From NCBI GenBank assembly GCA_963737265.1, contig CAVTRY010000012.1:128001-192000 (forward strand): a stretch of DNA of 64,000 nucleotides, written 5' to 3'. A program made the translations under genes and the position numbers. This document shows positions 8 through 54,909 of the stretch, in pieces (within the stretch, counting starts at the first letter, position 1; each line of letters begins with the position of its first letter). The stretch comes from an uncultured delta proteobacterium (GTDB lineage: Bacteria > Myxococcota_A > Polyangia > Fen-1088). The notes below the pieces were generated by a model. That model was not told the DNA's origin and searched no databases. It was given only the letters and a program-made list of their open reading frames with translations.

Positions 8-170
8 CTAGAGCACCGAACGGGTTGCCGGACCGAGTGAAATTGCGCAGTTGCGAGCGGCCCGAGGCGCGAGGAGGGAAGATACTCGACGTATCTGACC
101 GACGAGCAACGAAGGGACGCGACGCAAATGAGCGATTTCACGACGGGAGTCAACCCGTTCGGTGCTCTAG
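8..170. mobile_element. Hairpin/MITE-like element, copy A of the shared-core family
   Basis: Perfect 20-bp inverted repeat CTAGAGCACCGAACGGGTTG (8-27) / CAACCCGTTCGGTGCTCTAG (151-170), with CTAG at both ends. The core at 63-114 is shared with the elements at 39215 and 54745. Confidence 0.8.
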
Positions 171-1090
171 AACCTTCCCCGCGCCGCCAGGCCGCCGCCA
201 CTCGGAAGCCAGAGGAAGCTGACCGAGGAATCGTCGTTGCTCGACGAGGAAGAGCCACCCGAGCGAAGGATGAGAAATGTGTCGACCGCAGCGCCCACGA
301 GGGCTACGCCAAACATCGCATAGGACGTGTAGGCCAAGGGCGGCGCGGCGTTACATTCGGTGTTGGCAGTCGCCAAACGATTGTTGGACGCATCGCTGTT
401 GCACGCGTTCATTTTGCTGCGTGCGGCGACGTTGAGCGCGATGCCGACCGCGAGCGCGGCCGCGCTGGTACCGCCGATGACCCATTCCGCAACGTGGGAA
501 GCACCCTGCGCTTGGGCTTCGGGCTCCGCGGGTCGAGTGGCCTCGGCCATGGGCGCCGGCTGCGGCTCGGGCGGCGGCGTCAGCTCCTCTTGCGCCGGTT
601 GCGCCGGCTCGGCGGGTTCGGCCGGCTTCTCTGCGGTCGTCTCGGCCGCGGGCGTTTCCGTCGCCGGCGCCGTTGCGGCCTCTTTTGCGGCGGCGATCTT
701 CTCTTCAAGGGTCGCGACCTTGGTTTTGACGTCTTCCTTATCGGTCGCGTCCGGCTTGAGCGTAAGATAGGCCTTGTACATCTTGAGCGACAGGTCGTAG
801 TCGCCGCTGCGCTCGGCCACGCGCCCGAGGTTGTAGGCGGTGAAGGGGTGCGCAAGCATCTTGTACGAACAGGCATATGCACGGGTTGCCTCGGCGTCGT
901 TGCCGGCGTTCTCCGCGGCCTCGGCGGTACCGAACCATTCCTTGGCCAATCTTCGGCGCTCCTGCGGATCTTCGGGGGACGACGCTGGGCACTCCGCGGC
1001 GCGCGCGGCAGTGGGGCCGAACAGCAAGATCCCGAACGAGATTGCTGCGAGAGCTCGAGGAAGTCGATGTGCGATGCGCGTGTTTTTCAT
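167..1090 (-). CDS. Secreted TPR-containing protein with Pro/Ala/Glu-rich linker and C-terminal hydrophobic segments
   Basis: 307-aa ORF with signal peptide and TPR-like helices (AYNLGRVAERSGDYDLSLKMYKAYL). The stop codon lies in the CTAG end of element A. Confidence 0.75.
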   Translation of the reverse strand: MKNTRIAHRLPRALAAISFGILLFGPTAARAAECPASSPEDPQERRRLAKEWFGTAEAAENAGNDAEATRAYACSYKMLAHPFTAYNLGRVAERSGDYDLSLKMYKAYLTLKPDATDKEDVKTKVATLEEKIAAAKEAATAPATETPAAETTAEKPAEPAEPAQPAQEELTPPPEPQPAPMAEATRPAEPEAQAQGASHVAEWVIGGTSAAALAVGIALNVAARSKMNACNSDASNNRLATANTECNAAPPLAYTSYAMFGVALVGAAVDTFLILRSGGSSSSSNDDSSVSFLWLPSGGGLAARGRF

Positions 1091-1355
1091 GACAGTGCTA
1101 CGGGGTTAAAAGGGGGTTAGGTCGTATCTCTTTGTTCTTTTCCACCAGTCGACCCATCGTTGTTCGGAGTGTCACCCAGGCTGGTGCTGGCTGACGGCTC
1201 AGCTTCATCCTGGCGACGTAGTATCGCGCGTTTTTGCGCTGACGTCGTTCTGTTTTTTTTCCTTGCGACTCGGGAGCTGAAACCTGAAGCCTCATGACGG
1301 GACTGCTTAATCGTCGCGCCACGCGAAAAAGCTCGGGGCTGTGGCTCAGGCGATC

Positions 1356-3255
1356 TCAGGGCGTGTTGGCAACACGAGAGGCAGCCCACGATCCAGGGAC
1401 CACGAAGCTGGCGGTACGCGATCGAATCTCGGCCGACCACAGACCTGGGCCGGCCGCGGATCCGCCGACGCCACTTGCCAGCCCGAGGGCATCGACTTGG
1501 CCATTTCCGTCGAGGTCGACCACGGGGGCTAGGCCGGAGAGGAAAAAGTCGAGACCGTCGCCATCCAGGTTGGCAAAAGCCCCCGACAGGCTTGTCCCCA
1601 GGGCAGCGAGCCCCGACTTACAAGCGACCACCAAACAGCCTCGCGGTTGCTGAATCTCGTCACAGACCGCGGCGTTCGAGCGCGCTGCAACCGGTCAGGA
1701 GCGTGCCGCGATTGCTCAGCTGGGCCAGGCCAAAGATGAAGGTGACCAGGCTGCCGGCATCGGACGCACCCCGCGGCGCGAGACTGCTGTCTTCGAACGC
1801 GTAGCGCGCGGACGTGCCAAGCCGCAGCGTGAAGCCGTGCTCGGGGATCGTGATCTGATCCTTCTTGAGGGTGGCGAGAATCCAGGAGGCGGTCGTCTCG
1901 GTCAGGCCGAGCACGGAGGTCGGGAACGAGTTGGGGGCGGGCGCATCGGGAAAGGTCAAGCCGCCAAGGGCGTGACTCACAAAGTAGCTGTTGGTGGGAC
2001 TTGCTTGCGTCACGGTCAGCACCGAATCGAGGCGAACACGGTCAAGGAGCGTGGCGATTTCCGTGGGGAATGCGCCGAGGTTGGCGCTGATAAGCCGAGC
2101 TCGTGCTCCGGAAAACAGGGCATCGACGGTGACCTCGAGGCTGGTTCGGCCAGCGCTGTCGGTACTGTCGTGACACGGGGTATCGGTTGCGCTGGCGACC
2201 GTTCCCGAAAGCGGTGCCACCGTCTTGCCCCGGTGAGCAAGGATCAGGGCGCCCAAGGTCCCTCCGGCGCCCGGCACGGGAATGCAATCGTTGGGAGCCG
2301 TGGCCGCATCCGACGCCAGCGCGGCGATCGTGCAATCGAGCCACAGCCGGGCGGGGTCGAGCGGGCAGCGCGCCCATTGCTGCCACGCGGATTGAATCAG
2401 GACCGTGGCCGAAAGCGGCGACGCGAACCCGAAGCTAGAAACCGCCTGGTAGGTTCCAAGCGGCACCGGAAACAGGTGATCCATGTAGAGGGTGGCCTGA
2501 ATGGTTTGCGATTCGAGCAACGAGGGGCCCGGCACGTCGACGCAGCCGCCAATGCGCACGATGTTGCTACTGTCCGTTGCCTGGCCCACCACGGCGCTGT
2601 TGCCCTGGGCCGCAACGCCGAAAAATACCAGCGACGAACCGATGGCGATGGGGACGTGCGGTGGGCGCGGCCGATTGGGAGCGACGTTCAGGTTGTTGAG
2701 GTCGAGCAGGGAACACGTCGTGTTGTCGAAGAAAAGCAAACGTGTGGCGGTCAGGGTTTCCGATCCAAGAAGAGCGTAGGCAGGCACGGGAAGGATGGCC
2801 ACGGAATAGGCGTTCGTGGTTACCAAGATATCGGCCACGGCCGACGCGCATTCCTGGCAGGAAGCACGAAGGACGAGAGTCACGGGGCTATTGTCGCTGG
2901 CGAGGTTGCCGGCGATGACTTCGAGCTCCACGCCGCCGTTGCTGTCGGTCAGGGCCTGGTCCGTCGAAAGCTGCGCTCCCGTCACCCCGCCATCGCTGGC
3001 GGCGCTGGCGATGGAAAAATCGACGAGGTAATCGGGAATCGGCAAATTCTGACCGTCGCGCAGGACAAATTGAAGACGACCGCTGCCTGCGGGGCGGATG
3101 ACCAGCGAGTCGGGGGTGGCGCTCAAGGAAAGGCCGCTCGGAGGCGCGCCATCGGCAAGCTGCACCGGCGAGTTGGATCGGCAGCTGGTTGCGCCAACGG
3201 CAACCAGAAGGCAGACGCCACTCGTGGCAGCCCAAACGTGCATGACACGGCTCAT
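1356..3255 (-). pseudogene. Cys-rich lipoprotein with Ig-like N-terminal region, split by a 1-nt frameshift (or sequencing error)
   Basis: ORFs 1660..3339 and 1356..1634 join in frame if one T at 1675/1676 is removed (CSALDAAVCDEIQQPRGCLVVACKSG). Lipobox-like GATSC. Likely ATG at 3255. Confidence 0.65.
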
Positions 3256-3337
3256 CGGCTCACCGACGGAGTTTACGCTATCACGAGTTGCCCACGTTGA
3301 CCTTCGTTCGTCGCGCGAGTAAACCCCTGGGACAAGC

Positions 3338-6925
<3,588 letters not shown>

Positions 6926-6938
6926 GAAGATATCCAGC

Positions 6939-7337
6939 ATGTTTCGCTCTATCGCTGTCGCGACGTTGTTTGCCGCACTGTTCGCATCCCAAGTCTTTTC
7001 AGCCGACGGGCTGGCACCACCCCCGGGCTACAAGCCCGACAAGAAAACCATCCGACTGTTCGAGGCGAAGTGCGCGACTTGCCACGGCGAGGATGGTCGC
7101 GCGAAGACCGAGCTCGGCCAAGAAATGGCCGTCGCGGACATGACCCGGGTGGCGTACTGGAAAAATCTGACGCTCGAAAGCGCGCGCAAATCGGTGATGG
7201 ACGGCATTAAGCGTACCTCCAAAGGTCTGGACGGCAAGGAGGCCGGAAAGGAACAAGAAATGAAGCCTTTCCGCGACCGGCTCGCGCCCGAGCAGATCGA
7301 CGCTCTCAATCTTTACGCATCTTCCTTCAAGAAGTAG
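6939..7337 (+). CDS. Monoheme c-type cytochrome
   Basis: Signal peptide, CATCH heme-binding motif and distal Met (EMKPF). Confidence 0.85.
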   Translation: MFRSIAVATLFAALFASQVFSADGLAPPPGYKPDKKTIRLFEAKCATCHGEDGRAKTELGQEMAVADMTRVAYWKNLTLESARKSVMDGIKRTSKGLDGKEAGKEQEMKPFRDRLAPEQIDALNLYASSFKK

Positions 7338-7405
7338 CCGCGGCCAGGCCGGATGCCTGTTACACTGGGACTCAGGACTTACGAGGAGGCCGCGAGTAGC
7401 ACATC

Positions 7406-7912: not shown

Positions 7913-7923
7913 CCGCAGTCGTC

Positions 7924-9315: not shown

Positions 9316-9347
9316 GCGCCGTCAGCCGGACAGCGCGGAAGCCACCG

Positions 9348-9572
9348 CTAAGGCGCGCACGTTCCCTGGGTGCAATTCTGGGTTCCCATCCCGGCGTCGT
9401 CCAGGGGGCCGATGACCTTGGAGAGCCAGCAAGCGGCGTCGATGGTGGTCGGAGCACCGCCGGTGCAAGTCATGGTGACCTTCGAGCTTCCAACGCCGAT
9501 GGTCGAGCTGGCGATCTCATTTCCCGTGGAGTCGCGGGGTTGCAGGCAAGGGTAGGGTCGAAAACCGGACAT
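9348..9572 (-). pseudogene. Possible C-terminal remnant of a Cys-rich secreted protein
   Basis: Short ORF ending TCTGG...AACW...DDAGMGTQNCTQGTCAP, with no signal peptide or clear start. Confidence 0.3.
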
Positions 9573-37581: not shown

Positions 37582-39210
37582 ATGAAACAGGCCAGAATGG
37601 GCGTTAACCGTTCGATCTCAACCTCGATCAGCGTGGCTATTGGCCTGGTGCTGCTGGTCATCCTCGGTTCGGTCTTCGCCCTCCTTCAAATTCAGAACCA
37701 ACGGCGTGCCTTCGATGCGGCTGCGCAGTCCGCGGCCGAGACAAATGCCCTGATTTCATCGGCCATAACCTTTTCGATGAGCCAGGGCGCCCAGGATATT
37801 GGCCCCCTGGTGGCTTCCTTGAGAAGCATCCGCACGCTCAAACAGATACGACTTACGCCCGCCGATGCGGTTCATGCCGGTGGCGAGATGGAGCTGGACG
37901 CGGCCGAGAAGGCGGCGTTCGCGTCCCGGCAGGAGGCATTTCTGCACGAAGATTTCGCAGGCGAACCGGTCATCAGAGCCATTCGCCCTATCCTTTCCGA
38001 ACAGAGCTGCCAGGGCTGCCATGACTCGAGGACCGGCGCAACCCTCGGAATCCTGAGCGTCCGCTACTCGCTTGCCGCGACCACGACCGCCGTGGCACAA
38101 CAGCGCTCGATTTCGCTGACGGCGGCGGTCCTTACCATCGCCGTCATCTTCACGCTGATCTGGGTCCTCATCGACCGCAAGGTGATCCGGGGCCTCTTGA
38201 GCCTGGACCGAGTCATGCGTTTGGTAGCTGACGGCGATCTGCAAGCCGAGACGCACATCCAACGCAATGACGAGCTGGGTCGGTTGGCGAGCGCGTTTAG
38301 CAGCATGCGCGAGAACACGAGGACGCTCGTGAGAGACATCTCTGGCAAGACGGTGGCGCTTAACAAGAGCGCGCAGGGAGCCGCCGAAGTTTCCGGCGAT
38401 CTCAGCGAGAGTGCACGCCGGATGAAGGAGAAGTCGAATGCTGTCGCGGCGGCGGCCGACGCGTTGAGTGCGGGTACCACGTTGGTTGCGTCGAACATGG
38501 CCAGCGCGACGGATGAGCTTTCGTGGGTTGCCGCGGCAACCGAGCAGATGAACGCCACCGTGGGCGAGATCGCCGCGAACACGGAGAAGGCGCGCGGCGT
38601 GAGCGGGTCGGCAACCGAACAAAGTAAGCTCGTCGCCAAGTCCATGCAGGTGCTAGGTCAGGCCGCCCGCGAGATTGGCACGGTCACCGAGACCATCATG
38701 AGGATTTCGGCGCAGACCAACCTGCTCGCCCTCAACGCAACCATCGAGGCGGCGCGCGCCGGCAGCGCGGGCAAGGGCTTCGCGGTCGTTGCCAACGAGA
38801 TCAAGACGCTGGCCGAGCAAACCGCTCAGGCCACCCGTGACATCCACCAAAAGATCGATGACATTCAAACCTCGGCGACGAGCGCGGTCGCGGATATCCA
38901 GAAGATCGCCGGGGTGGTCCAGGAACTGGGCAACATCGTGGGCTCGATTGCGGCGGCCATCGGGGAACAGTCAGGCATGACCCGCGACATTTCGGAAAAC
39001 ATCGCGCGGGCTATCCACGGCGTGAAGAAAGCAAGCCATGCCGTTGGCGAAACGGCTTCGAACAGCAAGACCATCGCCACGGACATCGCAGGTGTCAACG
39101 TGACCGCGCAAGACCTCTCGTCGGCGAGCACCAAAATGAGCAGCAGCGCCGTCGAGCTCAAAGGGCTTGCCTCGCAACTCGAAGGGATGACCAAGAGATT
39201 CAAGGTGTGA
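37582..39210 (+). CDS. Methyl-accepting chemotaxis protein with c-type heme periplasmic sensor
   Basis: 2 TM segments, periplasmic CQGCH, HAMP, and [31 protein letters not shown]. Confidence 0.93.
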
Positions 39211-39214
39211 CTCA

Positions 39215-39377
39215 AGACGTGTCTATCAATCGCAGACCGAGCCCCGGCCGAGCGAGCAAGCCCGCCCGCGAGGCGCGACGAGCGCGCATAGCGCGGGCTA
39301 TGTAAGCGAGGAGCAAGCAACGAAGCGGGCGGGATGCGCAGCCGGACGGGCGACGGGAGCGATTGATGGACACGTCT
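39215..39377. mobile_element. Hairpin/MITE-like element, copy B of the shared-core family
   Basis: 19-bp TIR AGACGTGTC(T/C)ATCAATCGC. TCA direct repeat at 39212-39214 and 39378-39380. Core at 39269-39325. Confidence 0.8.
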
Positions 39378-39383
39378 TCAGGC

Positions 39384-40841
39384 CTACTGCGGCTGGGTCA
39401 TCGGCACGCCGCTCTGATCGCAGGAATAGAACGAGTTGTAAAGGCCCTGGGCCGTGAGCCCTTGACCGGTAACGTGATCCCGGAAGGCACAGCTTGGCAT
39501 GCAGCAGTCCTGCATGGTCGAGGTCCACAGCCGCGTGCCGCCGCCGGATTTCGATCGGAAGGCGGAATTCGCCGCAGCCTGAGCCGCGGTCGTCACGTTC
39601 GGGTTGACCGCGGGAAGCCCCTGGGGGGCCAGCTTGCAGCCGGTGAGATCGGTCAGGTGCGACGGGCACTCCACCTTCATCGCCCAGACGTTCCAGTTGA
39701 GGTGATAGTAGGTCTGCGGATTGTTCGACTGAATGCAGGAGCGAATCGAATCGGCCGTCGTGGTCGCCGAGGGCGCCGCGATCATGTCGCACTCGGTGGC
39801 AATCTTGCTCTGACAGGCCGGGGTCGAGAGACTTGCCGTGGTAACCCAACTGACAGAGGTCTTGCATTCGCTGTATTTTGTGGCCCCCTTGACCCCGCCG
39901 TTATCGGCGCCGTCAGGCGGGAAGCTGGTGTAGATATATTCGCCGGATACGGCTTGCGGCGAGCCCTTCGGATCGCAGGCATTGTTCGCGCCAAAGCCTC
40001 CCGCGGCCATGAAGACGTCGAAGCTGTCGGTCGTGGCGCCCATGTTGAAGCTCTGCACGACGAGCGGTGGCGGCAAGGGCTGAATCGCGGACTGATTGTT
40101 GTTCGGGTCGTCGGGATTGACCAGGGCTTGACGATCGTTTTGCGACGGAGAGTCGTACACGAGCTGATAGCATTGACAGCAGGCGCTTGAGGCGGTGCCG
40201 TCAATGCCGCCCTGATCGGCATCGTGGCCGACGATCGCGTAGTTGAAAGCCGTGTTTCCGTCTAGGTTGGCGGCCTGTTTCATAGCGTCGCTGAACAACA
40301 TCCATTGCGGGCAGATGAAGGCCACCGGCATGTTCGGCTTGCTCGCGGGGGTGTCCTGGCAAGCATTCACGAAGGATGTGCAATTGCCGCCGCAGGTGCT
40401 GCTGGCCTGTCCCGTCACGCATCCCTCGTCCTGAGTCGCGAACTTGTTTCCGCATTGCCTGGGCGGCGGCAGGGTTGTCCACGTCCCGCTCGTGGCGCCG
40501 CCTGCGCTCGTGGCGCCGCCTGCGCTCGTGGTGCCGCCTGCGGCGACGCCGCCGGTTCCGATCGTGCCGCCCTTCGAGCCGCTGCTGCCGCCTGCATTCG
40601 CTCCGCCCGCAAGGACGCTGCCCCCGGAGGCGCTTGTCGCAGTGCCGCCGGAAGCCACGATTCCACCGTTCGCCGAGGTGGCTCCCCCGGCCGGTCCCGA
40701 GCTGCCCCCCACAGAGCCGCCCGCGCCTCCTAATCCCGAGCCTCCCGACCCCATGGACGGCTCTTTGGGGCCAGCGCAGCCAAGCGTCGTGGCAACGGCC
40801 AGGGCGAGCAATCCAGTCATACGCGTGAGTCGAGACAGCAT
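39384..40841 (-). CDS. GH45-like endoglucanase lipoprotein, apparently circularly permuted
   Basis: Lipobox TLGC and Gly/Ser/Thr linker. CCQCYQL, LVVQS...FDVFMAAGGFG and CPSHLTDLTGC, followed by TSTMQDCCMPSCAF. Confidence 0.8.
   Translation of the reverse strand: MLSRLTRMTGLLALAVATTLGCAGPKEPSMGSGGSGLGGAGGSVGGSSGPAGGATSANGGIVASGGTATSASGGSVLAGGANAGGSSGSKGGTIGTGGVAAGGTTSAGGATSAGGATSGTWTTLPPPRQCGNKFATQDEGCVTGQASSTCGGNCTSFVNACQDTPASKPNMPVAFICPQWMLFSDAMKQAANLDGNTAFNYAIVGHDADQGGIDGTASSACCQCYQLVYDSPSQNDRQALVNPDDPNNNQSAIQPLPPPLVVQSFNMGATTDSFDVFMAAGGFGANNACDPKGSPQAVSGEYIYTSFPPDGADNGGVKGATKYSECKTSVSWVTTASLSTPACQSKIATECDMIAAPSATTTADSIRSCIQSNNPQTYYHLNWNVWAMKVECPSHLTDLTGCKLAPQGLPAVNPNVTTAAQAAANSAFRSKSGGGTRLWTSTMQDCCMPSCAFRDHVTGQGLTAQGLYNSFYSCDQSGVPMTQPQ
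40487..40540. repeat. Three tandem 18-bp repeats in the GH45 linker
   Basis: CGCTCGTGG(C/T)GCCGCCTG x3, encoding AGG(A/T)TS. Confidence 0.85.
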
Positions 40842-45006: not shown

Positions 45007-45040
45007 GACCCGGCCTTCATAGCAGAACAAGACAGGCGAA

Positions 45041-46633: not shown

Positions 46634-48165
46634 GTTCCAGGCACTCCGGCCGCAGACATGCGGCCGTAGCCACCACTTCCACGAAGGGGTGGAACGCAGA
46701 CCCCGTCGCGGCGGTAGAGGATGTAGGCGCCGGCTTGGGAGATCCTGCGAAAACGAGCATCGCTCATGGTTTGACCCGGGCTCATCAAAGCGTAGTTCGC
46801 GGCCGCTAGGTTGGGACCTGCAGCGGACCACAAGAGCGGTACGCGCCGATGCAGATAGGTATAGCCGCCTGTCCAGTAAGCATTCATGTTGGGTGCCACG
46901 AGCCCGCAAATATCCGCACGGGAGCCGGCCTCGCTCAGCAGCCGATTTCTCTCATCGAAGGCGCCCCAAACCAAGCCCGATGTTGGACCACCGCGCTCTC
47001 CAGGGGCCATCTCCTGCCCGATATCCGCGAAGCTCACCTGGCCGGCGCGCACAAAAAAAACCAAGGAGAGAGTCAAGGCAACCGTTCCGCCAGCAACGCT
47101 CCGGCTGGCACGCGAATAGGGTAACCTTGCAATAAGCCCGCCGAGACCGACAGCCGCGCCCAAAAGGAAGAACGGCAGCACCGGAAAAAGGAAGCGCAAC
47201 TCTTTGTGTGGGATGGTGGAGTGAACCGCCAGAAAAACCAGCGCCGGCACCGCTACCGGCCAGGCTCGCCGAAGCCCGGCGAGAAATCCCAGCGTGAGAA
47301 TCAGGATCGCCGGACCGTTGCTGTTCAGCATGGCGTGCAGAAAGAACGTCCTCGGCGCGACCCCCCACTGGTTGGCGCCGTTTTCGACCAAGTTAAAGCG
47401 CAGGTAGACGATGAGGGATTGAAATGGCTTTCCCCACGTCGCCCAGTCGAGCACGCCGCCCGCCAACATAACCAAGGTCGCGCCGACCGCGACCCAGCCA
47501 GCGGTTCGCCAACCCCGCAAAACCACGACGACGATGGCGACGACCGGCAGCAGGACCCCATTCTGGTAGCGCAAGACGGTGGCCAGCCCGAGCAGGACGC
47601 CGGCAAGAGCGGGACACCGGATCCTTCCACGCCACAACCTGCCCTCCGGTCGGTTTCGCCACGGCCAAAGCAGTGACACCCCAAAGGCGAGCGGCAGCGC
47701 GCTCGCCACCTCGGCCATGGCGCGGCTGCTGTAGATGAGACTGGCCGGCAGCCCAGCAGCGGACAAGCCGAGGAGCAAGGCCGCGGTCCTGCCGCCCAGG
47801 GCGTGGGCGATGCGAAGCATGGGGAAAAAGGTAGCTGCCGCCAGCGCGGCGAAGACGAGCTTCACGCCCGTGACCAGGCCGGCACCGCTGCCAACCCCGA
47901 CGGTAGCCAGCACTTTCATGAGACCCGCGATCAGGCCCGGCAGCAGCCAAGACCGCGCCCCGTCCTTGAATTCCCACGGGACCAGCCCATAGCCGAACGC
48001 CACGCGGTGGCCCTGTTCGAGGGTCTGGAAAATTTCGTCCGCCCAGATGACGCCGTGGTCGTGGACAGCGGGGTACGCGCGAGGCACGAAGATCGCGGCG
48101 CACAAACCCAACAGCAGCCAACTGCGTTTGCTGGCGGCGGTGGCCGCGGACTCCAGGCGATTCAC
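46630..48165 (-). CDS. Alg9/PIG-B-like (GT22) mannosyltransferase family protein
   Basis: ADEIFQTLE..H...GYGLVPWEF...RSW and PHKELRF. GTG start at 48165. Confidence 0.8.
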   Translation of the reverse strand: MNRLESAATAASKRSWLLLGLCAAIFVPRAYPAVHDHGVIWADEIFQTLEQGHRVAFGYGLVPWEFKDGARSWLLPGLIAGLMKVLATVGVGSGAGLVTGVKLVFAALAAATFFPMLRIAHALGGRTAALLLGLSAAGLPASLIYSSRAMAEVASALPLAFGVSLLWPWRNRPEGRLWRGRIRCPALAGVLLGLATVLRYQNGVLLPVVAIVVVVLRGWRTAGWVAVGATLVMLAGGVLDWATWGKPFQSLIVYLRFNLVENGANQWGVAPRTFFLHAMLNSNGPAILILTLGFLAGLRRAWPVAVPALVFLAVHSTIPHKELRFLFPVLPFFLLGAAVGLGGLIARLPYSRASRSVAGGTVALTLSLVFFVRAGQVSFADIGQEMAPGERGGPTSGLVWGAFDERNRLLSEAGSRADICGLVAPNMNAYWTGGYTYLHRRVPLLWSAAGPNLAAANYALMSPGQTMSDARFRRISQAGAYILYRRDGVCVPPLRGSGGYGRMSAAGVPGT

Positions 48166-48218
48166 CGGGCAAGAATGCCTGCTCGCCTCGCCGCGGTCTA
48201 GATCGCAGCCGGGATTCA

Positions 48219-49340
48219 CTACGCATCTACGACGGCCGACAACACCGCTCCCGGCGCGCCTACGCGCGCGAAGGATGCCGCCAGCGCCTGATTATCCTTC
48301 GTCCCGAGGACCTTCGGCAAAGCCTCGGCGGGCACGGGCATGGCAACGCTCAGTCCAGCCTTGAAACGCTCAACCCTTGCCGCGCTCTCCTCGACGCGCG
48401 CGCGAACATCCGCCCTGGTCTCGCCAGCCCGGACCAGCGCCTCGAACGCGCGCGTCTGCCGGTCGCGCGGCTCGCGAACGAGAAAATGGTCGACCCCGGC
48501 CAGCAGACTCTCGACAACCAGCTCCTCGACCGGATAGCGGTCGGCCACCGCGCGCATGCCCAGATCGTCGCTGACCAATATCCCGACAAAGCCCAGCTCG
48601 CCGCGCAGAATGTCGTGGGCGATCCGCCGCGACAGTGTCGCCGGCAGGTCGGCATCCCACGCCGGATAGAGGACGTGCGCGGTCATGATTGCCTCCATTC
48701 CTGCCCGAGCCGCGGCGGCGAACGGGGCCAGCTCGATAGAGCGCAGGCGTGTCTCGTCGTGCGCCACCAGGGGAAGCTCAACGTGGGAATCGGTGTGGGT
48801 GTCGCCGTGCCCGGGAAAGTGCTTCCCGCAACCGAGCAACCCCGCATCGTGCAGACCGCGCCAGAAAGCAAGGGCGTGGTCGATGACGTTTTCGACGCGC
48901 GTGCCAAAAGCGCGGTTGCCAATGACTGGATTCTTGGGATTGGTCCGCACATCGAGCACCGGCGCCAAATCCCAGCCGATGCCCAGCGCGGCGAGCTCCG
49001 CGCCGAGCGCACGCCCCACCGCGCGCGTGCGCTGAACGTCGCCGGCCGCGGCCACCGAATACATGTCGGGCCACTCGGTCAGCGGGCTGCGCAAACGCTG
49101 CACAAGTCCACCTTCCTGATCGACGGACACCATCAACTCCGCCGAGAGCGGGCTTGCCTTGCGCAGCGACGCCACCAGCCCCGCCACTTGGGCCGGATTT
49201 TCGATATTGGGGCGAAAAAGCATCACGCCGCCGATTTCCGATCGAGCGACGCGATCGAGGAGCTCACCGGGTGCCGAGAGGCCGTCGAAGCCGACCGAAA
49301 AGAGCTGCCCGCAGAGGCGCCTAAATTTAGATGAAGTCAC
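48219..49340 (-). CDS. nagZ: Beta-N-acetylhexosaminidase (GH3)
   Basis: VDQEGG.VQRL, KHFPGHGDTHTDSH and VSDDLGM. GTG start at 49340. Confidence 0.93.
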   Translation of the reverse strand: MTSSKFRRLCGQLFSVGFDGLSAPGELLDRVARSEIGGVMLFRPNIENPAQVAGLVASLRKASPLSAELMVSVDQEGGLVQRLRSPLTEWPDMYSVAAAGDVQRTRAVGRALGAELAALGIGWDLAPVLDVRTNPKNPVIGNRAFGTRVENVIDHALAFWRGLHDAGLLGCGKHFPGHGDTHTDSHVELPLVAHDETRLRSIELAPFAAAARAGMEAIMTAHVLYPAWDADLPATLSRRIAHDILRGELGFVGILVSDDLGMRAVADRYPVEELVVESLLAGVDHFLVREPRDRQTRAFEALVRAGETRADVRARVEESAARVERFKAGLSVAMPVPAEALPKVLGTKDNQALAASFARVGAPGAVLSAVVDA

Positions 49341-49487
49341 AGCCCTATGGTACCCGATGAAATGGGGTCTGGGACGTGACTTCCGTGAAAACTCGACCGT
49401 CCGCGCTCCTAGGGGTTCCCGCAGCGTCGGGCTCTTGCTATAAGGTCCCCTGGTTTGCGCACCCCACGAACGATCGAGGTCAAACAA

Positions 49488-51473
49488 ATGTCCGAAAAGG
49501 CAGGCACATGGCTCTCTTGGCTGGCGACTGGCCTGCCTTTCACGCTCGTCGCACTTGCCCTGGCGGGTGCGACTCCCGCATGGGCGCAGATGGGCGGCAT
49601 GAACCCAGGTATGGGCGGGCCCGGCGGCATGGGACATGCCCCCGGCGGGCCAGGAAAAGGGGGCGCGGAAGAGAAAGAAGAAGGGCCAGCCGAGCAGGCC
49701 CCTGACGCCGAGGAGAAAGCCCCGGAAAACAAAGAAAGCGAAAGCGGCTACCTCAACCAGGCGCGACGCCGAACCAAGATCGTCGAGTTCGACGGCTACT
49801 ACCGCGTACGCACCGACTACCTTTACGACATGAACCTGGGCCAGGGATACAGCAATGGATCTCCACCGGCCCTGCCGCCCTTCCCCCAGCCCAGCGAGTG
49901 CATGTCAGCGGTTATTGGCCAAGCACCGGCAACCTCGTGCAGCGACAAGGGCCTCGGCAGCGCCAACATGCGCCTTCGCATCGAGCCGACAATCAACATT
50001 TCCGATCAAGTCCGGGTGCGCAGCCAGTTCGACATCTTCGACAACCTGATCTTGGGTTCGACACCGGACTCGTTGATCAATCCGAACGTGGCCAACCCGA
50101 CCCTCAACTCTGCGAACCCGGTGGGACAAACGAGCGCAGCGGCACCCACGGATATCCTCTCGACTACGCAAAACAGCTATGCCTCCAGCATCCTCGCCAA
50201 ACAAGCATGGGGCGAAATTGACACCGAGCTCGGGTCGATCCGCTTTGGCCGCATGCCCTGGCACTTCGGCCGCGGCATGTACTTCAACCGCGGCGACTGC
50301 GCCGACTGCGATGGCGGCACGGTCGTGGATCGCTTGATGGTGCTCACCACGCTCTACGGCCACCAGCTTTCGCTGGCCTGGGACTTCGGCGCCCAAGGCT
50401 ACGACATCGGCTACACCAACCTAGGCCTGACAAACACGGGCGGCTTCCCTTTGGATCTCACCCAGAAAGACGACGTCACACAGCTCATGGCATCGCTTGC
50501 CCGCATCGACGACGCCAAGACCTGGCGTGAGCGAATCGCAACTGGCGATGTGGTCGTCAACTACGGCGCACAACTGGTCTATCGAAGCCAGGACTATGCG
50601 ACGTTCAACGTGAATTTGCCCGAGGGCTCGGCCCGCGGGTCAAACACCCAGGCACCGCTCACGAGCAACGATCTCGGAAATCCGAGTACCACCGCGGGCC
50701 AGGGGACGCTCACGACCAACGTCAACGCCCTGCTCTTCATCCCCAGCGTTTGGTTCAAACTTGGGTGGAAGGCGCTAACGCTGGAGTTCGAAGGAGACGC
50801 GCTGCTGGGAAAGATGGGCAATGCCGGACCGCTGCGCCTGGATACGACTCAGACCGATCAAGGTCTCAGGATCTTGCAGGCCGGTTGGGTTCTAGCCGCC
50901 GATCTCAAACTATACAACGACTCGCTTTTCATCGGGCTCGAAACCGGTGGGGCCACCGGGGATCAGGCCGAGCTTGCATACAGCCCGACCTACGGCCTTT
51001 ACTACCCTTACCTCAACTACCGCTGGAAATTCGTGCCCCAGCCAGCTGGCGACCGCAGTCTCAACGACTTCCATTTCTCGCCCGAGTATCACGTGGACGA
51101 GATCCTCTTCCGCCGTATCCTCGGCACCGTGACCAACGCCATCTACGTCAAGCCGAGCATCGCGTACTGGCTGGATTTGGATTCGAGCAAGATTCGCGAG
51201 GTCGGGATTTCGGGCGGGCTCATCTACAGCTTCGCGCCGGTCCCGGTGTCCACGCCGGGAAACTCCATGAACTACGGCATCGAAATGGATCTCGGACTTC
51301 AGTACCGCAACCGGCGCGAGAATTTCTACGCCGGCTTGACCTGGGGTGTGTTCTGGCCCATGGCAGCGCTCAGCCGTCCGGCGGGCGACGCTGGGGATCA
51401 GCTGTGGGGAGCGCAGGCCGTGGACGCCAGCGCCGCGCAGGTCCTGCGCACCTTCATGGGCATCCGTTTCTAG
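49488..51473 (+). CDS. Myxobacterial outer-membrane beta-barrel protein (TIGR04551-like)
   Basis: SANMRLRIEP, QFDIFDNLILGSTP, FGRMPWHFG and FHFSPEYHVDEILFR, with terminal Phe. ATG 49488 follows GAGGT. Confidence 0.75.
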   Translation: MSEKAGTWLSWLATGLPFTLVALALAGATPAWAQMGGMNPGMGGPGGMGHAPGGPGKGGAEEKEEGPAEQAPDAEEKAPENKESESGYLNQARRRTKIVEFDGYYRVRTDYLYDMNLGQGYSNGSPPALPPFPQPSECMSAVIGQAPATSCSDKGLGSANMRLRIEPTINISDQVRVRSQFDIFDNLILGSTPDSLINPNVANPTLNSANPVGQTSAAAPTDILSTTQNSYASSILAKQAWGEIDTELGSIRFGRMPWHFGRGMYFNRGDCADCDGGTVVDRLMVLTTLYGHQLSLAWDFGAQGYDIGYTNLGLTNTGGFPLDLTQKDDVTQLMASLARIDDAKTWRERIATGDVVVNYGAQLVYRSQDYATFNVNLPEGSARGSNTQAPLTSNDLGNPSTTAGQGTLTTNVNALLFIPSVWFKLGWKALTLEFEGDALLGKMGNAGPLRLDTTQTDQGLRILQAGWVLAADLKLYNDSLFIGLETGGATGDQAELAYSPTYGLYYPYLNYRWKFVPQPAGDRSLNDFHFSPEYHVDEILFRRILGTVTNAIYVKPSIAYWLDLDSSKIREVGISGGLIYSFAPVPVSTPGNSMNYGIEMDLGLQYRNRRENFYAGLTWGVFWPMAALSRPAGDAGDQLWGAQAVDASAAQVLRTFMGIRF

Positions 51474-52337
51474 CTACTTCTTGTTCTTGCCCACCGCCGG
51501 CTCGAGCGACTTGATGCGCTCCTGCGCGTCCCGCTCCGAGGAAGGATCGGTCTTGTCGTTGGTGGCCAGGTACTTCTTGAAAGCGTCGAGCGCCTCTTCA
51601 TAGCGGCGATCCTGCGAGTAGAGCAGCCCGAGATCGTAGTAGGCGCCCGACTGCAAGGGGTCGAGCTGGATCGCCGCTTGATATTCACCGATGGCGTCGT
51701 CGACGTGCTTCTGCTGGCGATAGACCACGGCCAAGTTGAAGTGGGTCTGGCCGTTTCTGGGATCGAGGTCGATGGCTTTCTTGAATGCCTTGACCGCACC
51801 CTCCTTGTCGGACGTCTTCGCAAGCGCGACGCCCAGGTTCGACCAGCCGAGTGCTTCCGTGGGTCTAAGCTCGGTCGCCTTGCGTAGGTTGGTGATGGCC
51901 TTCGGGTAGTCGCCCTTCTGGCGGTACGCGGTGCCCAACGTGACCCGCGCATCGTAGTCGTCGTCCTTGAGCGACACGGCGGTTTCCAATTCCTTGATGC
52001 CTTCATCGACGCGCTTCATGCGGATGTAGAGCGCGCCTAGATTGGCGTGGGAATCGCTGTCCTTGGGCTGCAGCGATGTGGCCTTTCGATAGGCCTCGGC
52101 CGCGTCGGTGTAGTCGCCCTGGCCGCGGTAGAGATTGCCAAGGCTGAACCAAGCCGCGGCATAATTCGGACGAGCCCCGATTGCTTGCTTCATCTCGGCG
52201 ATGGCTTCCTCGGTCCGGCCCTGGCGCTTGAGCACCAGTCCTTGATTGTAGTGAACCGCGGCTTCGTCGGCCGTGGCCGGCGTCGGCAAAGTCAGGACTG
52301 CCGCAAGCAAGCTCAATTTGAACCATGCGCTCTTCAT
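51474..52337 (-). CDS. Secreted TPR repeat protein
   Basis: About seven regular 34-aa TPR units after a signal peptide. Confidence 0.9.
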   Translation of the reverse strand: MKSAWFKLSLLAAVLTLPTPATADEAAVHYNQGLVLKRQGRTEEAIAEMKQAIGARPNYAAAWFSLGNLYRGQGDYTDAAEAYRKATSLQPKDSDSHANLGALYIRMKRVDEGIKELETAVSLKDDDYDARVTLGTAYRQKGDYPKAITNLRKATELRPTEALGWSNLGVALAKTSDKEGAVKAFKKAIDLDPRNGQTHFNLAVVYRQQKHVDDAIGEYQAAIQLDPLQSGAYYDLGLLYSQDRRYEEALDAFKKYLATNDKTDPSSERDAQERIKSLEPAVGKNKK

Positions 52338-52412
52338 GGTTGACGAGCTTCAACCTAGCGCGGGCCGCAGTCAACCCGCGCGTTTTTCTCTGTCTTCGAT
52401 TGGACGCGACCG

Positions 52413-54743
52413 CTACCACTCGACGTGAATGCCGGCGGAGGGCAACACCAGCCGATAGTAACTTTCGTCGATGGCTCCCGACGAGTTGCGCTTGATGTCG
52501 AAGACCTCGCGGCTGAGAGTCGAATTGACGAGCTCCAGGTACACATCGAGCACGTAGCTGTCGAAGATGAAGCGTTTGTCGCCACGCAGGTCGAGCTGCG
52601 GAAATCCGGGCAGATTGACGTAGCCTTCGACCTGGTTCTCATTCGCCACTTCGCTGAACAAGGGATACGGACGGCCGCTGTTGTAGTGAAAGCGCACCGA
52701 GGTCGAGTAGTTGCGCGGCCAGCGATAGCCGACCACGAGATTGAGAATATGTCGCTCGTCCCAGTCCGACGGAACGACGATGCCGTCCACCACGCGCAGC
52801 GAGCGCGAGAGGGTGTAGGCCAGCCAGCCGTAAAGCCGGTGCTTCATCGGACGGCGAATCATGACCTCAAGGCCATAGCTTTCGCCGTCGCGTGGCGCGA
52901 GCAGGTCCGATGCTTCCGGGTCTGGAATCAGCGTGTTGGTCAGGTCGGTCAGGTGCAGGCGCTGGAAGAAGATCGACGTGTCGAGATTGACGTCCAGGCC
53001 CAGGCGATCTTCGAGCGCGGACTCGATACCGAGCGATCCCTGGCGCGAGCGCTGCAATCCATAGGTGGCAAGCCCAAAGCCCTCGAAGCCGGGCACGCCG
53101 ACGGGCAGGCTCGGCATCTGCGAGAATTGTCCAACCGTGGCCTTGATCCAATCGCGCGGCCCCACGCGGTAGCGCACGAGCAAGCGCGGGCTTGGCGCAA
53201 AACGATGGGTGCCTTGTTCGTAGTAGGCGTCGTAGCGCAGGCCGGGCGTCACGACAAGTCTGTCGCCGCCGCGCAGGCTTATCCCGGCATAGGCACCCAC
53301 CGATAGAACGTCGCGATTGTGAAACAGATCGGTCTCGTAGGTGTCCGCGAGGTAGCCGCCCGTCAGCGAGACCAAGGATGTGGGACGAAAGCGCTGAATT
53401 TCGGCGTCGCTGCCGATCTCGACGTCCAGCCAGCGCAGGGCCGACCAGTGCTCGGAAATCCGCGGCGCGACCGAGTACGCACGGCTGCCCACCGGCAGGG
53501 AAAAGAGCGAGGTGAGGCTGACCGTGGAATCGTCGACGCCCGCCACGGCCGCCGCGGTCAGGCGGCCGCCCGCCACCGCGCCAACCCAGCGCAATTGCAC
53601 CCGGTGGAAAGTAAGCTGGGCGAGCCCGGGTGCGATGGCATTGGGCTGGCCCACGAATCCGTAGTCGGTGGCGTCGGGATTTTTTTGGCGAAGGTCGTCG
53701 CCCGATCCGAAGGCGAACAAGGTCAGCTTACCGGGGCCGAGGGTGTGCTCGACCCGCACCTGGTAGTCCCAGTAGTCGACCGCATAAGCGTTGGAGAAAG
53801 CTGACAACAGAAGTCCGGTATAGGAATATCGGCCAGCGACGGCCACGGTGCCTTTGCCGTTGTCCCACGGCGCGGCCACAATGCCCCCCGCATCGAACAG
53901 ACGAACGTCGGCCGAAACGTGGACCCGATCGGTGGCCGGCGACGCAGTCTGCGCGGCCACGATGCCCGACACGTATCGTCCGTACTCGACCGGATAGCCG
54001 CCCGGAAAGAATTCCAGGCCCTCGATGAAAAAGGGATGAATGACGGAAGGCCCGAGGGCGAAGTGAAAGAGCGCCGGCGCGCGCACGCCGTCGATGAAGA
54101 AGCCGGTATTTCCGGGGTTGGCGCCGCGGATCGCATAGAACGGCAAGGGCCACGTCGTCTGTGCAACACCGGGCAGCGACTCGATCACACGAAAGGGATC
54201 GCCGAAGGAGCCGGCGGTATGAATCAGCTCCTCCTTCTTGAGTGGAACGGCGGGGTCTTCCTGCCGATCGGCGGTCACGACGGTTTCGTAGCGCTCGCCA
54301 TCCGGGCGCGGCTCGAGTCGGATCACCAAATCTTGCGTCGCGAGCGAAACGACCAGCGGCAGCGTGACCGGCGCATACCCAGGGCACTGCACGCGCAATA
54401 GGTGAGTGCCGGGAAGTACCTCGAGGACAAAGGTTCCGCCCGGTCCGGTTTCGGTGCTTGTCGCGGTATCGGCGCCGACCCCGCTGTGGACCATGGCTCC
54501 GACGAGCGGCTGGCGGGTTCCGCGCGCGAGCACCTTGCCGGTGATTCTCACCAGGCCTTGCGTAGCGACCGGTCGTTCGCCAGCACCATCGGACGAAGCA
54601 AACCCGTCTTGGCCAGCGTCGGCAACGGTGGCCCCATCGCTTGCGCCGCCATCCAGTGGCGGACTGGCCGGCGCCTGCTCCGGCCCAACCGTACCGTCGA
54701 CGGCCATGGCCGACAGGAGCACAACGAGAAGAACGGAAGTCAC
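52413..54743 (-). CDS. TonB-dependent receptor with carboxypeptidase-regulatory-like N-domain
   Basis: Plug GDPFRVIESLPGV...IRGANPG, PGLRYD, GWLAYTLSRS and terminal Trp. GTG 54743 is the likely start because the longer ORF start lies inside element C. Confidence 0.88.
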   Translation of the reverse strand: MTSVLLVVLLSAMAVDGTVGPEQAPASPPLDGGASDGATVADAGQDGFASSDGAGERPVATQGLVRITGKVLARGTRQPLVGAMVHSGVGADTATSTETGPGGTFVLEVLPGTHLLRVQCPGYAPVTLPLVVSLATQDLVIRLEPRPDGERYETVVTADRQEDPAVPLKKEELIHTAGSFGDPFRVIESLPGVAQTTWPLPFYAIRGANPGNTGFFIDGVRAPALFHFALGPSVIHPFFIEGLEFFPGGYPVEYGRYVSGIVAAQTASPATDRVHVSADVRLFDAGGIVAAPWDNGKGTVAVAGRYSYTGLLLSAFSNAYAVDYWDYQVRVEHTLGPGKLTLFAFGSGDDLRQKNPDATDYGFVGQPNAIAPGLAQLTFHRVQLRWVGAVAGGRLTAAAVAGVDDSTVSLTSLFSLPVGSRAYSVAPRISEHWSALRWLDVEIGSDAEIQRFRPTSLVSLTGGYLADTYETDLFHNRDVLSVGAYAGISLRGGDRLVVTPGLRYDAYYEQGTHRFAPSPRLLVRYRVGPRDWIKATVGQFSQMPSLPVGVPGFEGFGLATYGLQRSRQGSLGIESALEDRLGLDVNLDTSIFFQRLHLTDLTNTLIPDPEASDLLAPRDGESYGLEVMIRRPMKHRLYGWLAYTLSRSLRVVDGIVVPSDWDERHILNLVVGYRWPRNYSTSVRFHYNSGRPYPLFSEVANENQVEGYVNLPGFPQLDLRGDKRFIFDSYVLDVYLELVNSTLSREVFDIKRNSSGAIDESYYRLVLPSAGIHVEW

Positions 54744-54744
54744 G

Positions 54745-54909
54745 CTAGTTCCGCCCGTCAGAAGAGCAACCATGTTTCGGCCGCCGAGGCGCCCGGCCAG
54801 CGAGGCGCGACGAGGGCGCATACTGGACGTATGTAACCGAGGAGCAACAAAGCTGGACGGGATGCATCGGCGACCTAAACATGGTTGAAATTCTGACGGG
54901 CGGAACTAG
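54745..54909. mobile_element. Hairpin/MITE-like element, copy C of the shared-core family
   Basis: Perfect 19-bp IR CTAGTTCCGCCCGTCAGAA (54745-54763) / 54891-54909, second stem CAACCATGTTT/AAACATGGTTG, core at 54801-54852. Confidence 0.85.

Follow-up and report, generated by a model that had tools for sequence, protein, structure and literature searches.

Gene-less hairpin elements with differing arms share a strand-specific, G·A-rich unit found in about eleven bacterial phyla

Three short hairpin elements lie in the window (the whole 64,000-nt stretch of DNA analysed here), and a preliminary description had them alike inside and different at their ends. What keeps such an interior while the ends change, and what moves the elements? 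Their coordinates were found as described. Element A, with class I arms, occupies positions 8–170 of the + strand (163 nt, including a CTAG at each end, 8–11 and 167–170) and has the terminal stem GAGCACCGAACGGGTTG. Element B, also with class I arms, occupies 39215–39377 (+, 163 nt) between two copies of a TCA target duplication (39212–39214 and 39378–39380, +). Element C, with class II arms, extends from 54745 to 54909 (+, 165 nt, again counting a CTAG at each end). The ~19-20-nt terminal arms are near-perfectly complementary in all three, as had been claimed. The elements fold as long imperfect hairpins of -55.2 (A), -58.0 (B) and -58.8 (C) kcal/mol with DNA parameters; the corresponding z values are -9.6, -7.3 and -10.5, none of 200 shuffled sequences being as stable. 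The complementarity of the arms could in part stem from a palindromic origin and not from selection on folding.

The core units lie at 50–126 in A, 39256–39337 in B and 54788–54864 in C, all on the + strand. They match the covariance model (CM) R1 at G000:C12:128050-128126 (71.1 bits), G000:C12:167256-167337 (62.5 bits) and G000:C12:182788-182864 (76.1 bits), respectively. The pattern GAGGCGCGASGAG-N18-40-CGASGAGCAA occurs three times in the window (64–109, 39270–39316 and 54802–54847), always on the + strand, and is absent from 100 shuffled versions, which bears out the claim of three cores facing one way. The extra GCAA reported for B is present, as a duplication in its 3′ block. Likewise, A and B share a conserved outer internal loop, GACCGAG/CGACGGGAG, flanked by different stems (31–37 and 141–149 in A, on the + strand; 39235–39241 and 39351–39359 in B); this motif pair recurs in copies from other Myxococcota MAGs. 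The compensatory changes among the three cores are real and number four in alignment A2, not three: in the order A, B, C, columns 26/67 read G-C, C-G, C-G; columns 31/63, G-C, C-G, G-C; columns 36/59, G-C, C-G, C-G; and columns 40/55, C-G, G-C, C-G. Arm identity among A, B and C (0.50-0.59) is that of shuffled sequence (mean 0.54), in agreement with the view that the arms are unrelated; the arms of C, however, resemble those of a further family, D (identities 0.72 and 0.64, against a shuffled maximum of 0.63). The cores are 0.69-0.82 identical, and up to 0.88 with families D and E added. The described pattern of a conserved interior between variable TIRs thus holds for A, B and C, but elements in other phyla conserve their terminal repeats too.

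The core is a continuous irregular helix: between its Watson-Crick pairs stand tandem appositions of the types G·A, A·G or G·A, C·A. In an alignment of 69 sequences, 85.7% of the cells of 22 pairs are paired, against 60.7% in shuffles (0/500), and covariation scores 0.572, where shuffles give 0.156 (0/500) and slid controls at most 0.151; these p-values, and the invariance of the conserved blocks, are overstated because the sets were collected by pattern or CM and the copies are related. The stems vary freely in sequence yet stay paired. In units found independently of the pattern, tandem-GA triplets are swapped for Watson-Crick triplets (ACC/GGT, GCC/GGC, GGC/GCC, TCC/GGA), and G and C are co-inserted on opposite strands; the pairing register is therefore fixed. 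With RNA parameters, 116 of the 123 units are more stable on the + strand; with DNA parameters, 114 are. In the arms, G·A or A·G appositions outnumber C·T or T·C ones by 326 to 52, and G·T outnumbers A·C by 170 to 116. The strand-specific, covarying single-strand fold of the preliminary description is thus upheld, and the data fit a folded DNA as well as a folded RNA. The core is absent from Rfam 15: at the gathering score no family matched in the window, only rRNA and tRNA turned up in seven loci taken from seven lineages, and a permissive scan of B gave nothing real. Tandem G·A is seen in the unit at the level of base appositions; the kink-turn, a named G·A motif, is defined in three dimensions, by tandem G·A after a bulge of three nucleotides and by a set geometry of its C and NC stems.

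The host genome holds about 36 copies (36 nhmmer matches at E<0.05 and 36 CM matches at E<=0.01). They fall into at least five arm families, all in a one-unit form of near-constant length (162-165 nt), with a conserved ~78-nt unit between ~42-nt inverted terminal arms. All five local families have 54-57 nt on the left side of the core and 57-60 nt on the right side. B is the most abundant family, and 13 of its intact copies could be aligned. Deviation from their consensus is 0.044 per site in the core, 0.033 in the left arm and 0.019 in the right arm, which points to selection acting on elements rather than on each inserted copy. One copy joins the left arm of D to the right arm of E, and another consists of two 3′ halves back to back. 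Such chimeric copies show that arms have been exchanged by recombination at the core. The elements have neither an ORF of their own nor a conserved neighbour gene; the ORF clusters that recur near 120 loci are ordinary genes or frames through the repeat.

By exact pattern, the same unit is present at 120 or more loci in about eleven phyla, which include Verrucomicrobiota, Acidobacteriota, Myxococcota, Planctomycetota, Patescibacteria, Pseudomonadota and Bacteroidota. Within the phylum of the host it is scattered unevenly, being present in 26 of 151 genomes and in 24 of 119 genera, at 1-30 copies each. Most other phyla usually have a two-unit form, a TIR-bounded element of ~275 nt in the order arm, unit, small central hairpin, inverted unit, arm. 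The complete chromosome of Pseudohongiella has 102 CM matches, 52 on the + and 50 on the - strand, with no replichore bias. Among Pseudohongiella elements chosen by their terminal repeat alone, 20 of 20 carry the unit, so that it behaves as an integral part and not as optional cargo. The usual view of bacterial MITEs is that they are debris restricted to single lineages, with the terminal repeats as their defining feature. In the present elements, what stays invariant is an internal helix, strand-specific and rich in non-Watson-Crick pairs, that persists while the arms and even the architecture change. Its persistence across phyla implies a conserved partner, be it a protein or a process. The unit is a compact motif that lends itself to testing, since one carrier, Thiohalobacter thiocyanaticus Hrh1, is in culture. 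With its covariance model, hundreds of intergenic repeats per genome that otherwise lack an explanation can be annotated, and insertion polymorphisms at gene ends can be flagged.

The flanks show how the elements insert. The empty sites reconstructed earlier, CTAG for A, CTCAG for B and CTAG for C, agree with the sequence, and an empty orthologous site was found for C. A metagenome contig of run X2 (3414 nt, ~92% identical, with 5 ambiguous letters) joins 54744 to 54906, skipping 161 nt and leaving one CTAG. The flank duplications are TA within CTAG or TNA within CTNAG. Most intact B copies have TCA at both ends; one copy has TTA on either side, so the trinucleotide is a true direct duplication. 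Duplications of TA or TNA are what a cut staggered by 2-3 nt leaves behind. The elements are mobile.

These sites bear on the HUH/RAYT-like route put forward in the preliminary description, in which an HUH enzyme (RAYT, IS200/IS605 or IS91-like) would recognise the hairpin and move it through a single-stranded DNA intermediate, as for REPINs. A strand-specific hairpin with conserved mismatches would suit such an enzyme. Y1-type genes are present in this genome (weakly, at 21.8 bits) and in all five of the other carriers tested, 28 Y2_Tnp matches were found here, and variation among B copies is far lower over the right terminal 30 nt than over the left (0.008 versus 0.045 per site). HUH Y1 elements, however, make no target duplication, whereas here direct duplications co-vary between the two ends and the empty site of C is clean. 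The core unit is missing from the Y1 loci of this genome and of four to five others; with filters off, no unit above 13 bits appeared at any of the Y1, IS110 or IS5-like loci searched. The repeat on either side of the sole Y1 gene in Thiohalobacter is another one, a perfect inverted repeat of 21 nt, and the IS91-type genes do not coincide with the hairpin elements. Orientation shows no bias with respect to replichore either (10 versus 14 in this genome). We regard this route as very improbable. REPINs and PATEs resemble the present elements in being interspersed hairpins with strand-specific mismatches, which in their case are recognised as single-stranded DNA. They differ in having no target duplication, in a conserved 5′ GTAG or two end hairpins on the same strand, and in flanking their own Y1 gene, none of which applies here. 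Assignment to the REPIN/RAYT system (REPtron) was rejected on the direct duplications, the Y1 loci and the other repeats of the Thiohalobacter gene. PATEs of the IS200/IS605 type have same-strand subterminal hairpins at both ends, lack TIRs and duplications, and are oriented with the replication fork; the units here are mutually inverted, TIRs and duplications are present and replichore bias is absent.

The elements have the features of MITEs: they are shorter than ~300 bp, lack coding capacity, are multicopy, possess TIRs and target-site duplications, and are polymorphic for presence. Searches of this genome, Thiohalobacter and Pseudohongiella for a mobilising enzyme identified none. None of the resident IS found in this genome shares the elements' arms or ends. 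The isolate T. thiocyanaticus likewise yielded no IS with such ends, and Pseudohongiella no autonomous IS between two candidate unit pairs; no split unit enclosing an ORF was found. The host genome, 99.5% complete, has 0 matches to DDE_3 (PF13358) and likewise 0 to DDE_Tnp_4 and DDE_Tnp_1_2 (PF13359, PF13586). PF01609 has 30 matches, and the four multi-copy IS have other ends. One 2054-bp IS in this genome is bounded by CTAG. The idea of a cargo passed between IS630-like and IS5-like ends consequently stands in part: TA and TNA duplications and the exchange of arms in chimeras agree with it, but neither these transposase families nor an IS sharing the arms is present, and the unit is integral. 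Origin as an IS630/Tc1-mariner-derived MITE was rejected, TA within CTAG fitting only A and C and PF13358 being without a match. Systems of the IS5 family (IS427/IS1031-type) and PIF/Harbinger produce TA or TNA duplications at CT(N)AG. The duplications at CT(N)AG-like sites are a feature in common with Tourist-type MITEs and the IS5 family, and GGGC(C/T)(C/T)GT at the start of several terminal repeats resembles the Tourist-type terminus; the missing DDE_Tnp_4 and DDE_Tnp_1_2 genes and the lack of a resident IS with these ends set the elements apart. We know of no common structured internal module in Tourist-type MITEs.

The unit might instead be the inherited subterminal sequence of an ancestral IS with long (~125-bp) TIRs, a duplex site for a transposase or nucleoid protein whose hairpin is incidental. 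In the ~275-nt elements the unit adjoins each TIR in mirror arrangement, as subterminal binding sites do, and the duplications and TIRs behave as in ordinary cut-and-paste elements. Yet at a duplex site it is sequence rather than pairing that would be conserved, and the two strands would not differ, whereas the stems are free in sequence with pairing kept, G·A triplets are replaced by Watson-Crick ones and one strand has six times as many G·A as C·T appositions. Nor was such an IS found in this genome, in Thiohalobacter or in Pseudohongiella. This origin appears quite unlikely.

As previously noted, the flanks of A, B and C contain or adjoin stop codons. The right CTAG of A holds the stop of a minus-strand ORF with GC3 support (167–1090), B sits between the convergent ORFs 37582–39210 (+) and 39384–40841 (-), and the right CTAG of C holds the stop of minus-strand ORF 54906–56603. 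A position at gene ends would suit a unit that works as RNA, a GA-rich hairpin in transcripts with a protein-binding, processing, stabilising, insulating, self-cleaving or catalytic role, which the transposon only spreads. The strand-specific covarying fold with conserved non-Watson-Crick positions is like that of structured RNAs. Two-unit elements have one inward unit on each strand, and transcription from either side would therefore give a sense hairpin. B-type sequence also occurs in contigs of one metatranscriptome library (X20), but these are contigs only, strandless, and DNA carry-over is possible. Against an RNA role, all three units in the window are antisense to the gene whose stop codon adjoins them. 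Genome-wide, by a crude GC3 ORF call, gene stops adjoin ~16 right ends and ~7 left ends, so that read-through would mostly yield the complement. The core shows no extra conservation in individual B copies, inspection by eye revealed neither a conserved promoter nor a T-run, and no Rfam family matched. We consider an RNA role unlikely.

We favour, with about an even chance of being right, the reading that A, B and C belong to a superfamily of hairpin transposons, non-autonomous and devoid of genes (structured MITEs), in which the unit is a cis-acting module under element-level selection. Selection would bear on element lineages. The module would act as a folded single strand, probably DNA exposed in transposition or replication and less likely a transcript, and could be read by a trans-acting factor encoded elsewhere, either a transposase or a ubiquitous host protein. 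Compensatory drift may diversify the arm families, as may recombination between elements at the unit they have in common. DDE transposases need duplex terminal repeats only, so a folded internal module as a requirement is without citable precedent. The terminal repeat GGGCCTGTTMACAC is conserved between Gammaproteobacteria and Acidobacteriota, and one Thiohalobacter element has it without the unit; the ends alone may thus suffice for movement. A bolder proposal, possible if doubtful, makes this GA-zipper unit the recognition handle or active part of an undescribed mobilisation or nucleic-acid processing system spanning many phyla. In one version a trans-acting protein would read the shape of the folded strand and cut where the closing stem begins, irrespective of the stem's sequence; arms of constant length but unrelated sequence would then be accounted for. 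In the other, the unit would be a new protein-binding or self-processing RNA or DNA motif hitch-hiking on transposons.

Structured MITEs, the reading we prefer, have partial parallels among known repeats. The Correia elements (NEMIS/CREE) of Neisseria are gene-less and multicopy, ~100-160 bp long, with TIRs, TA duplications, an internal functional site and long hairpins at gene ends, and to our knowledge they have no autonomous parent. The present elements are like them in size, absence of genes, TIRs, TA duplication, hairpins, gene-end sites and copies. Correia elements, however, are confined to one genus and conserve their terminal repeats and a duplex IHF site, whereas here the arms differ from family to family and a strand-specific G·A-rich helix is conserved over about eleven phyla. 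The bcr1 repeats of the Bacillus cereus group and the ERIC/IRU repeats of enterobacteria are short dispersed repeats of narrow host range with a conserved predicted single-strand fold and evidence of mobility; we know of no cognate transposase for either. They share fold and mobility with the elements described here but differ in sequence and target (TTTAT for bcr1), and do not have the modular one- or two-unit architecture.

The hairpin elements A (8-170), B (39215-39377) and C (54745-54909), all on the + strand, read as the preliminary description stated. Each folds alone into a long imperfect hairpin, with predicted energies (DNA parameters) of -55.2, -58.0 and -58.8 kcal/mol and z-scores of -9.6, -7.3 and -10.5, respectively; none of 200 shuffles was equally stable. 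The conserved G·A-rich module inside each element (~78 nt, hereafter the unit) is captured by the core pattern GAGGCGCGASGAG-N18-40-CGASGAGCAA, which matches exactly three times in the 64-kb window and not at all in 100 dinucleotide-preserving shuffles. All three matches lie on the + strand, so that the cores do face the same way. Their identity is 0.69-0.82; adding D and E, two further families from the same genome, raises the maximum to 0.88. The flanking inverted segments (arms) had been described as mutually unrelated. This holds for A, B and C, whose global arm identity (0.50-0.59) is at the level of shuffled controls (mean 0.54, maximum 0.64-0.69), but the arms of C are akin to those of the local family D (0.72 and 0.64). 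Ends vary around a shared core within the window, but in other lineages terminal repeats, too, are conserved. The compensatory changes among the three elements are real and affect four helix positions rather than three, with both sides changed at columns 26/67, 31/63, 36/59 and 40/55 of the core alignment. The extra GCAA of B is present, and the segments GACCGAG and CGACGGGAG, common to A and B, adjoin different stems.

The genome from which the window derives (G000, with the window at C12:128001-192000; 6.55 Mb in 25 contigs, ~63% G+C, 99.5% complete) was scanned with a profile of the three cores, yielding 36 copies at E<0.05, and with a covariance model of the unit, as had been proposed, yielding 36 matches at E<=0.01. 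Sorted by arms, the copies form at least five families, whose arms begin GAGCACCGAACGG (A), AGACGTGTCTATC (B, the commonest, with 13 intact copies aligned), GTTCCGCCCGTCAG (C), GGGCTCGTCAGAG (D) and GTACAGCGCC (E). Element length is 162-165 nt in all five, the core being preceded by 54-57 nt and followed by 57-60 nt. A strict motif test assigned 12 copies to a GACCGAG/CGACGGGAG loop class and 8 to a GAGGCGCCCGG/GGGATGSATC class; no copy had both loops and 16 stayed unsorted. One chimeric copy joins a D-type left arm to an E-type right arm; another consists of two 3′ halves back to back, with one A arm and the opposite arm from another family. These two copies therefore indicate that arms are exchanged by recombination at the shared unit. 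Further copies are deletion derivatives or carry a ~45-nt G-rich insertion in the 5′ half of the core. Such insertions (GGG runs, quadruplex-like) occur in the units at C11:1248035-1248156, C13:402567-402687 and C13:414255-414328; in two of the three, the conserved 5′ block pairs with an inserted complementary segment. Separately, near-identical B copies at C6:52491-52649 (+) and C6:63249-63407 (-), both scoring 75.3 bits with the covariance model, lie inverted and 10.7 kb apart, which could reflect a composite unit or a segmental inversion.

A core-pattern scan of one genome per species identified at least 120 loci, 66 representatives of which were combined with A, B and C for analysis of the fold. 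In a 22-pair structure, 85.7% of the cells are paired versus 60.7% in column shuffles (0 of 500 as high). The covariation first noticed in three copies persists in these 69 sequences: it affects both the closing and the apical helix, and its score is 0.572 as compared to 0.156 in shuffles (0 of 500) and to at most 0.151 when partners are slid by 1-3 columns. The seemingly unpaired blocks can be written as a continuous helix: C-G; G·A A·A; G-C; G·A C·A; G-C C-G; G·A A·G; S-S; G·A A·G; G-C, and onward. As these blocks are fixed by the search pattern, the pattern-picked set cannot test the pairing register. Screening the same loci with the covariance model gave 31 further units (25 distinct) outside the pattern. 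Watson-Crick triplets (ACC/GGT, GCC/GGC, GGC/GCC or TCC/GGA) take the place of GAG/CGA in these units, and where the 5′ side has gained a G, the 3′ side has gained a C, T or G opposite it. On this comparative evidence, the non-pattern units independently support the predicted helix register. A dif/XerCD-like site was also considered for the apical hairpin and rejected, the apical helix being free to vary from one lineage to another.

The fold is strand-specific, as had been suggested. Of 123 distinct units, 116 are predicted to fold more stably as the + strand than as the complement when RNA parameters are used (mean -36.2 versus -29.9 kcal/mol), and 114 when DNA parameters are used. In 112 non-redundant elements, the 60-nt arms flanking the core show the same kind of asymmetry, with 326 G·A/A·G versus 52 C·T/T·C appositions and 170 G·T versus 116 A·C. 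Relatedness of the copies makes nominal p-values for these strand tests overstated; the direction is the same in the own-genome and other-genome sets. We favor, with about even confidence, the reading that the unit is a cis-acting folded module. That it might be a mere duplex relic, a reading to be set against both the covariation and the strand asymmetry, appears quite improbable.

By record titles, the loci (at least 120) are spread over Verrucomicrobiota, Acidobacteriota, Elusimicrobiota, Eremiobacterota, Myxococcota, Planctomycetota, Patescibacteria (Parcubacteria, Saccharibacteria), Nitrospinota, Bdellovibrionota, Bacteroidota (Lewinellaceae) and Pseudomonadota (Pseudohongiella, Lysobacterales and the isolate Thiohalobacter thiocyanaticus Hrh1). 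Within the window's own phylum, model matches were found in 26 of 151 sampled genomes and 24 of 119 genera, at 1-30 copies each; such patchy spread is typical of mobile DNA.

A detailed comparison of four lineages revealed a repeat of ~275 nt that extends well past the core hairpin; in it, inverted terminal repeats form an outer stem enclosing the core hairpin, a small CCC-NNNN-GGG hairpin and a second long hairpin. This second long hairpin is itself a unit, diverged in sequence and read on the other strand (22-44 bits with the covariance model versus 47-83 for the first); the ~275-nt elements therefore have the organization arm, unit, centre, inverted unit, arm. The terminal repeat TAGGGCCTGTTMACAC is common to Pseudohongiella, Thiohalobacter and Terracidiphilus. 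On the complete Pseudohongiella chromosome, it matches 116 times forward and 126 times reverse, alongside 102 unit matches. All 20 Pseudohongiella elements picked only by exact terminal repeat contain the unit. One of them is a 163-nt form with a single unit, and thus the 162-165-nt elements of the window represent the one-unit version of the same design. Diversity profiles of the sample chosen by terminal repeat gave no clear contrast between units; a first Pseudohongiella sample was biased to top model scores. In T. thiocyanaticus, which has about 14 copies, locus L145 (positions 151-~290) contains a ~140-nt element with the same GGGCCTGTTAACAC terminal repeats and a different interior, in which the model finds no unit at E<=1.

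A, B and C belong to a real repeat family, not a chance resemblance, and the family is mobile. A 3414-nt contig of the public sequencing run X2, from a relative differing at ~7-10% of aligned positions, covers 53291-54744 and 54906-56000 unbroken, skipping 161 nt; five letters at the junction fit either side. The contig skips element C and so represents the orthologous site without it, retaining one CTAG, exactly the empty site that had been reconstructed. For B, which was compared with 30 relatives in search of an orthologous empty site, synteny is broken on the left side. Across the genome, flanks are direct repeats: CTAG for A and C, TTA for D and, for B, TCA at both ends of most intact copies and TTA at both ends of one. 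Since the B trinucleotide varies, and does so jointly at the two ends, it is duplicated target DNA and does not belong to the element. The targets can be reconstructed as CTAG, with TA duplicated, and CTNAG, with TNA duplicated, which corresponds to a 2- or 3-nt staggered cut after C. Such cuts are the convention of IS5-family subgroups and PIF/Harbinger elements.

The targets contain A/T and coincide with stop codons. The right CTAG of A contains the stop of the minus-strand ORF 167..1090, and that of C the stop of the minus-strand ORF 54906..56603; B lies between two convergent ORFs, with the TGA of 37582..39210 on one side and the stop of 39384..40841 on the other. Read in core orientation, most of the tabulated B flanks are TCA and none is TGA, an orientation rule. 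In the chemoreceptor-like ORF 37582..39210, many unrelated metagenome contigs stack on 38595-38767 and 38712-38763, and one contig omits 171 nt; this segment is a conserved or repeated domain outside element B.

Relative to the gene whose stop codon it adjoins, each of the three units in the window lies in antisense orientation, and in the whole genome ~16 right ends versus ~7 left ends abut a gene stop (by a crude, GC3-filtered ORF call). Most read-through transcripts would thus contain the complement of the unit rather than the unit itself. Contigs of the B type (151 and 233 nt) are present in the metatranscriptome X20, a strandless data set possibly containing DNA, and hence do not constitute evidence of transcription. 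An RNA function for the unit, with which the greater + strand stability under RNA parameters would agree, seems unlikely with this placement. In the alignment of the 13 intact B copies, the core deviates from the consensus more often (0.044 per site) than the left arm (0.033) or the right arm (0.019); inserted copies are therefore not individually protected in the core. Selection on propagating lineages, that is, a selfish requirement in cis, fits better than a host function at each locus. In the same 13 copies (the window's at 39215-39377 included), the right terminal 30 nt deviate at 0.008 per site (3 cells) and the left at 0.045 (17 cells).

The preliminary description envisaged mobilization by an HUH/RAYT-like enzyme. 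The genome does contain a weak Y1-like family (3-4 copies): a 202-aa Y1-like (HUH) ORF is clustered within 18 kb at C16:124584-142749, once in full and four times in part, and further full copies are on C23 and C22. However, no unit above 13 bits was found, with filters off, in 21 transposase loci of six genomes, and the defining features of REPIN/RAYT and IS200/IS605-type elements are absent from the window family. Orientation relative to the replichores is 10 versus 14 in the own genome (a weak skew in a 25-contig assembly) and 52 + versus 50 -, interleaved, on the Pseudohongiella chromosome. The strand bias that was to be looked for is thus lacking, which speaks against IS200/IS605-like lagging-strand dependence. 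Mobilization by an HUH enzyme is accordingly very improbable. The sole Y1 transposase gene of T. thiocyanaticus (L164:1455-1906) sits inside a perfect 21-nt inverted repeat, GGGGTCAGGTCTTGCAATCCA, an arrangement that is RAYT-like and unrelated to the unit.

Other enzymes were sought as well. DDE_3, DDE_Tnp_4 and DDE_Tnp_1_2 have no matches in the 99.5% complete genome, which has 30 DDE_Tnp_1, 7 IS110-type and 28 IS91-type matches, the last at positions that do not coincide with the repeats. The ends of its four multi-copy IS differ from those of the elements, and one 2054-bp IS is bounded by CTAG with unrelated repeats. Neither arm searches for a parent IS nor a search for cores split by an ORF gave a candidate in this genome. 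In Thiohalobacter, 8 short pairs of 253-320 bp and 12 solo repeats account for the 28 terminal-repeat matches; the solo repeats, considered as IS ends, are truncated ends adjoining ordinary genes such as clpX. Two Pseudohongiella unit pairs considered as a parent IS enclose Gcw_chp, glyoxalase, MFS and amidase genes. The gene family expected to be flanked by the core did not emerge either: clustering of ORFs from the 120 or more loci gave only frames crossing the repeat or ordinary genes (histidine kinase, tricorn-like protease, ABC ATPase, aldo-keto reductase, acyl-CoA ligase, enoyl-CoA hydratase). The core pattern has no match in 2.9 million viral contigs, nor element C in plasmids by blastn.

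In size, copy number, terminal repeats, target duplication and empty site the elements behave as MITEs, although no cognate IS was found in the genomes searched; they are MITEs in working principle. Correia, ERIC and bcr1 are structured, gene-end-associated, orphaned repeats. The window family resembles them in all three respects but differs in conserving an internal G·A-rich helix that is strand-specific and common to several phyla. Rfam 15 has no family for the unit or the elements. Searches of the literature, supplements excluded, returned only unrelated primers and constructs for the motif strings (one in PMC10106347) and nothing on the motif with MITE, structure and phylum terms; the portion consulted of a 2024 MITE review (PMC10969869) does not mention such a core. 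The family is a variant of the structured MITE with an unusually conserved, covarying, strand-specific module.

The B terminus, TCAAGACGTGTC, also begins a different repeat of the same genome, present in ~35-45 copies as a chain of small hairpins (for example, outside the window, at C12:63031, C12:77574, C12:284167 and C12:318902). This repeat has a TCA flank as in B, opens with the mini-hairpin AAGACGTGTCCATAAATGGACCCGTCTT and continues as three or four small GC-rich hairpins. At several loci (C13:176199, C15:160819, C12:63030, C21:79844), two different IS, with ends CATAGGCATTAACCC and CAGGGTCATCGCATC, are inserted at the identical point of its second hairpin, GGGAGGGCCGCTGCC, which suggests hairpin-targeted insertion.
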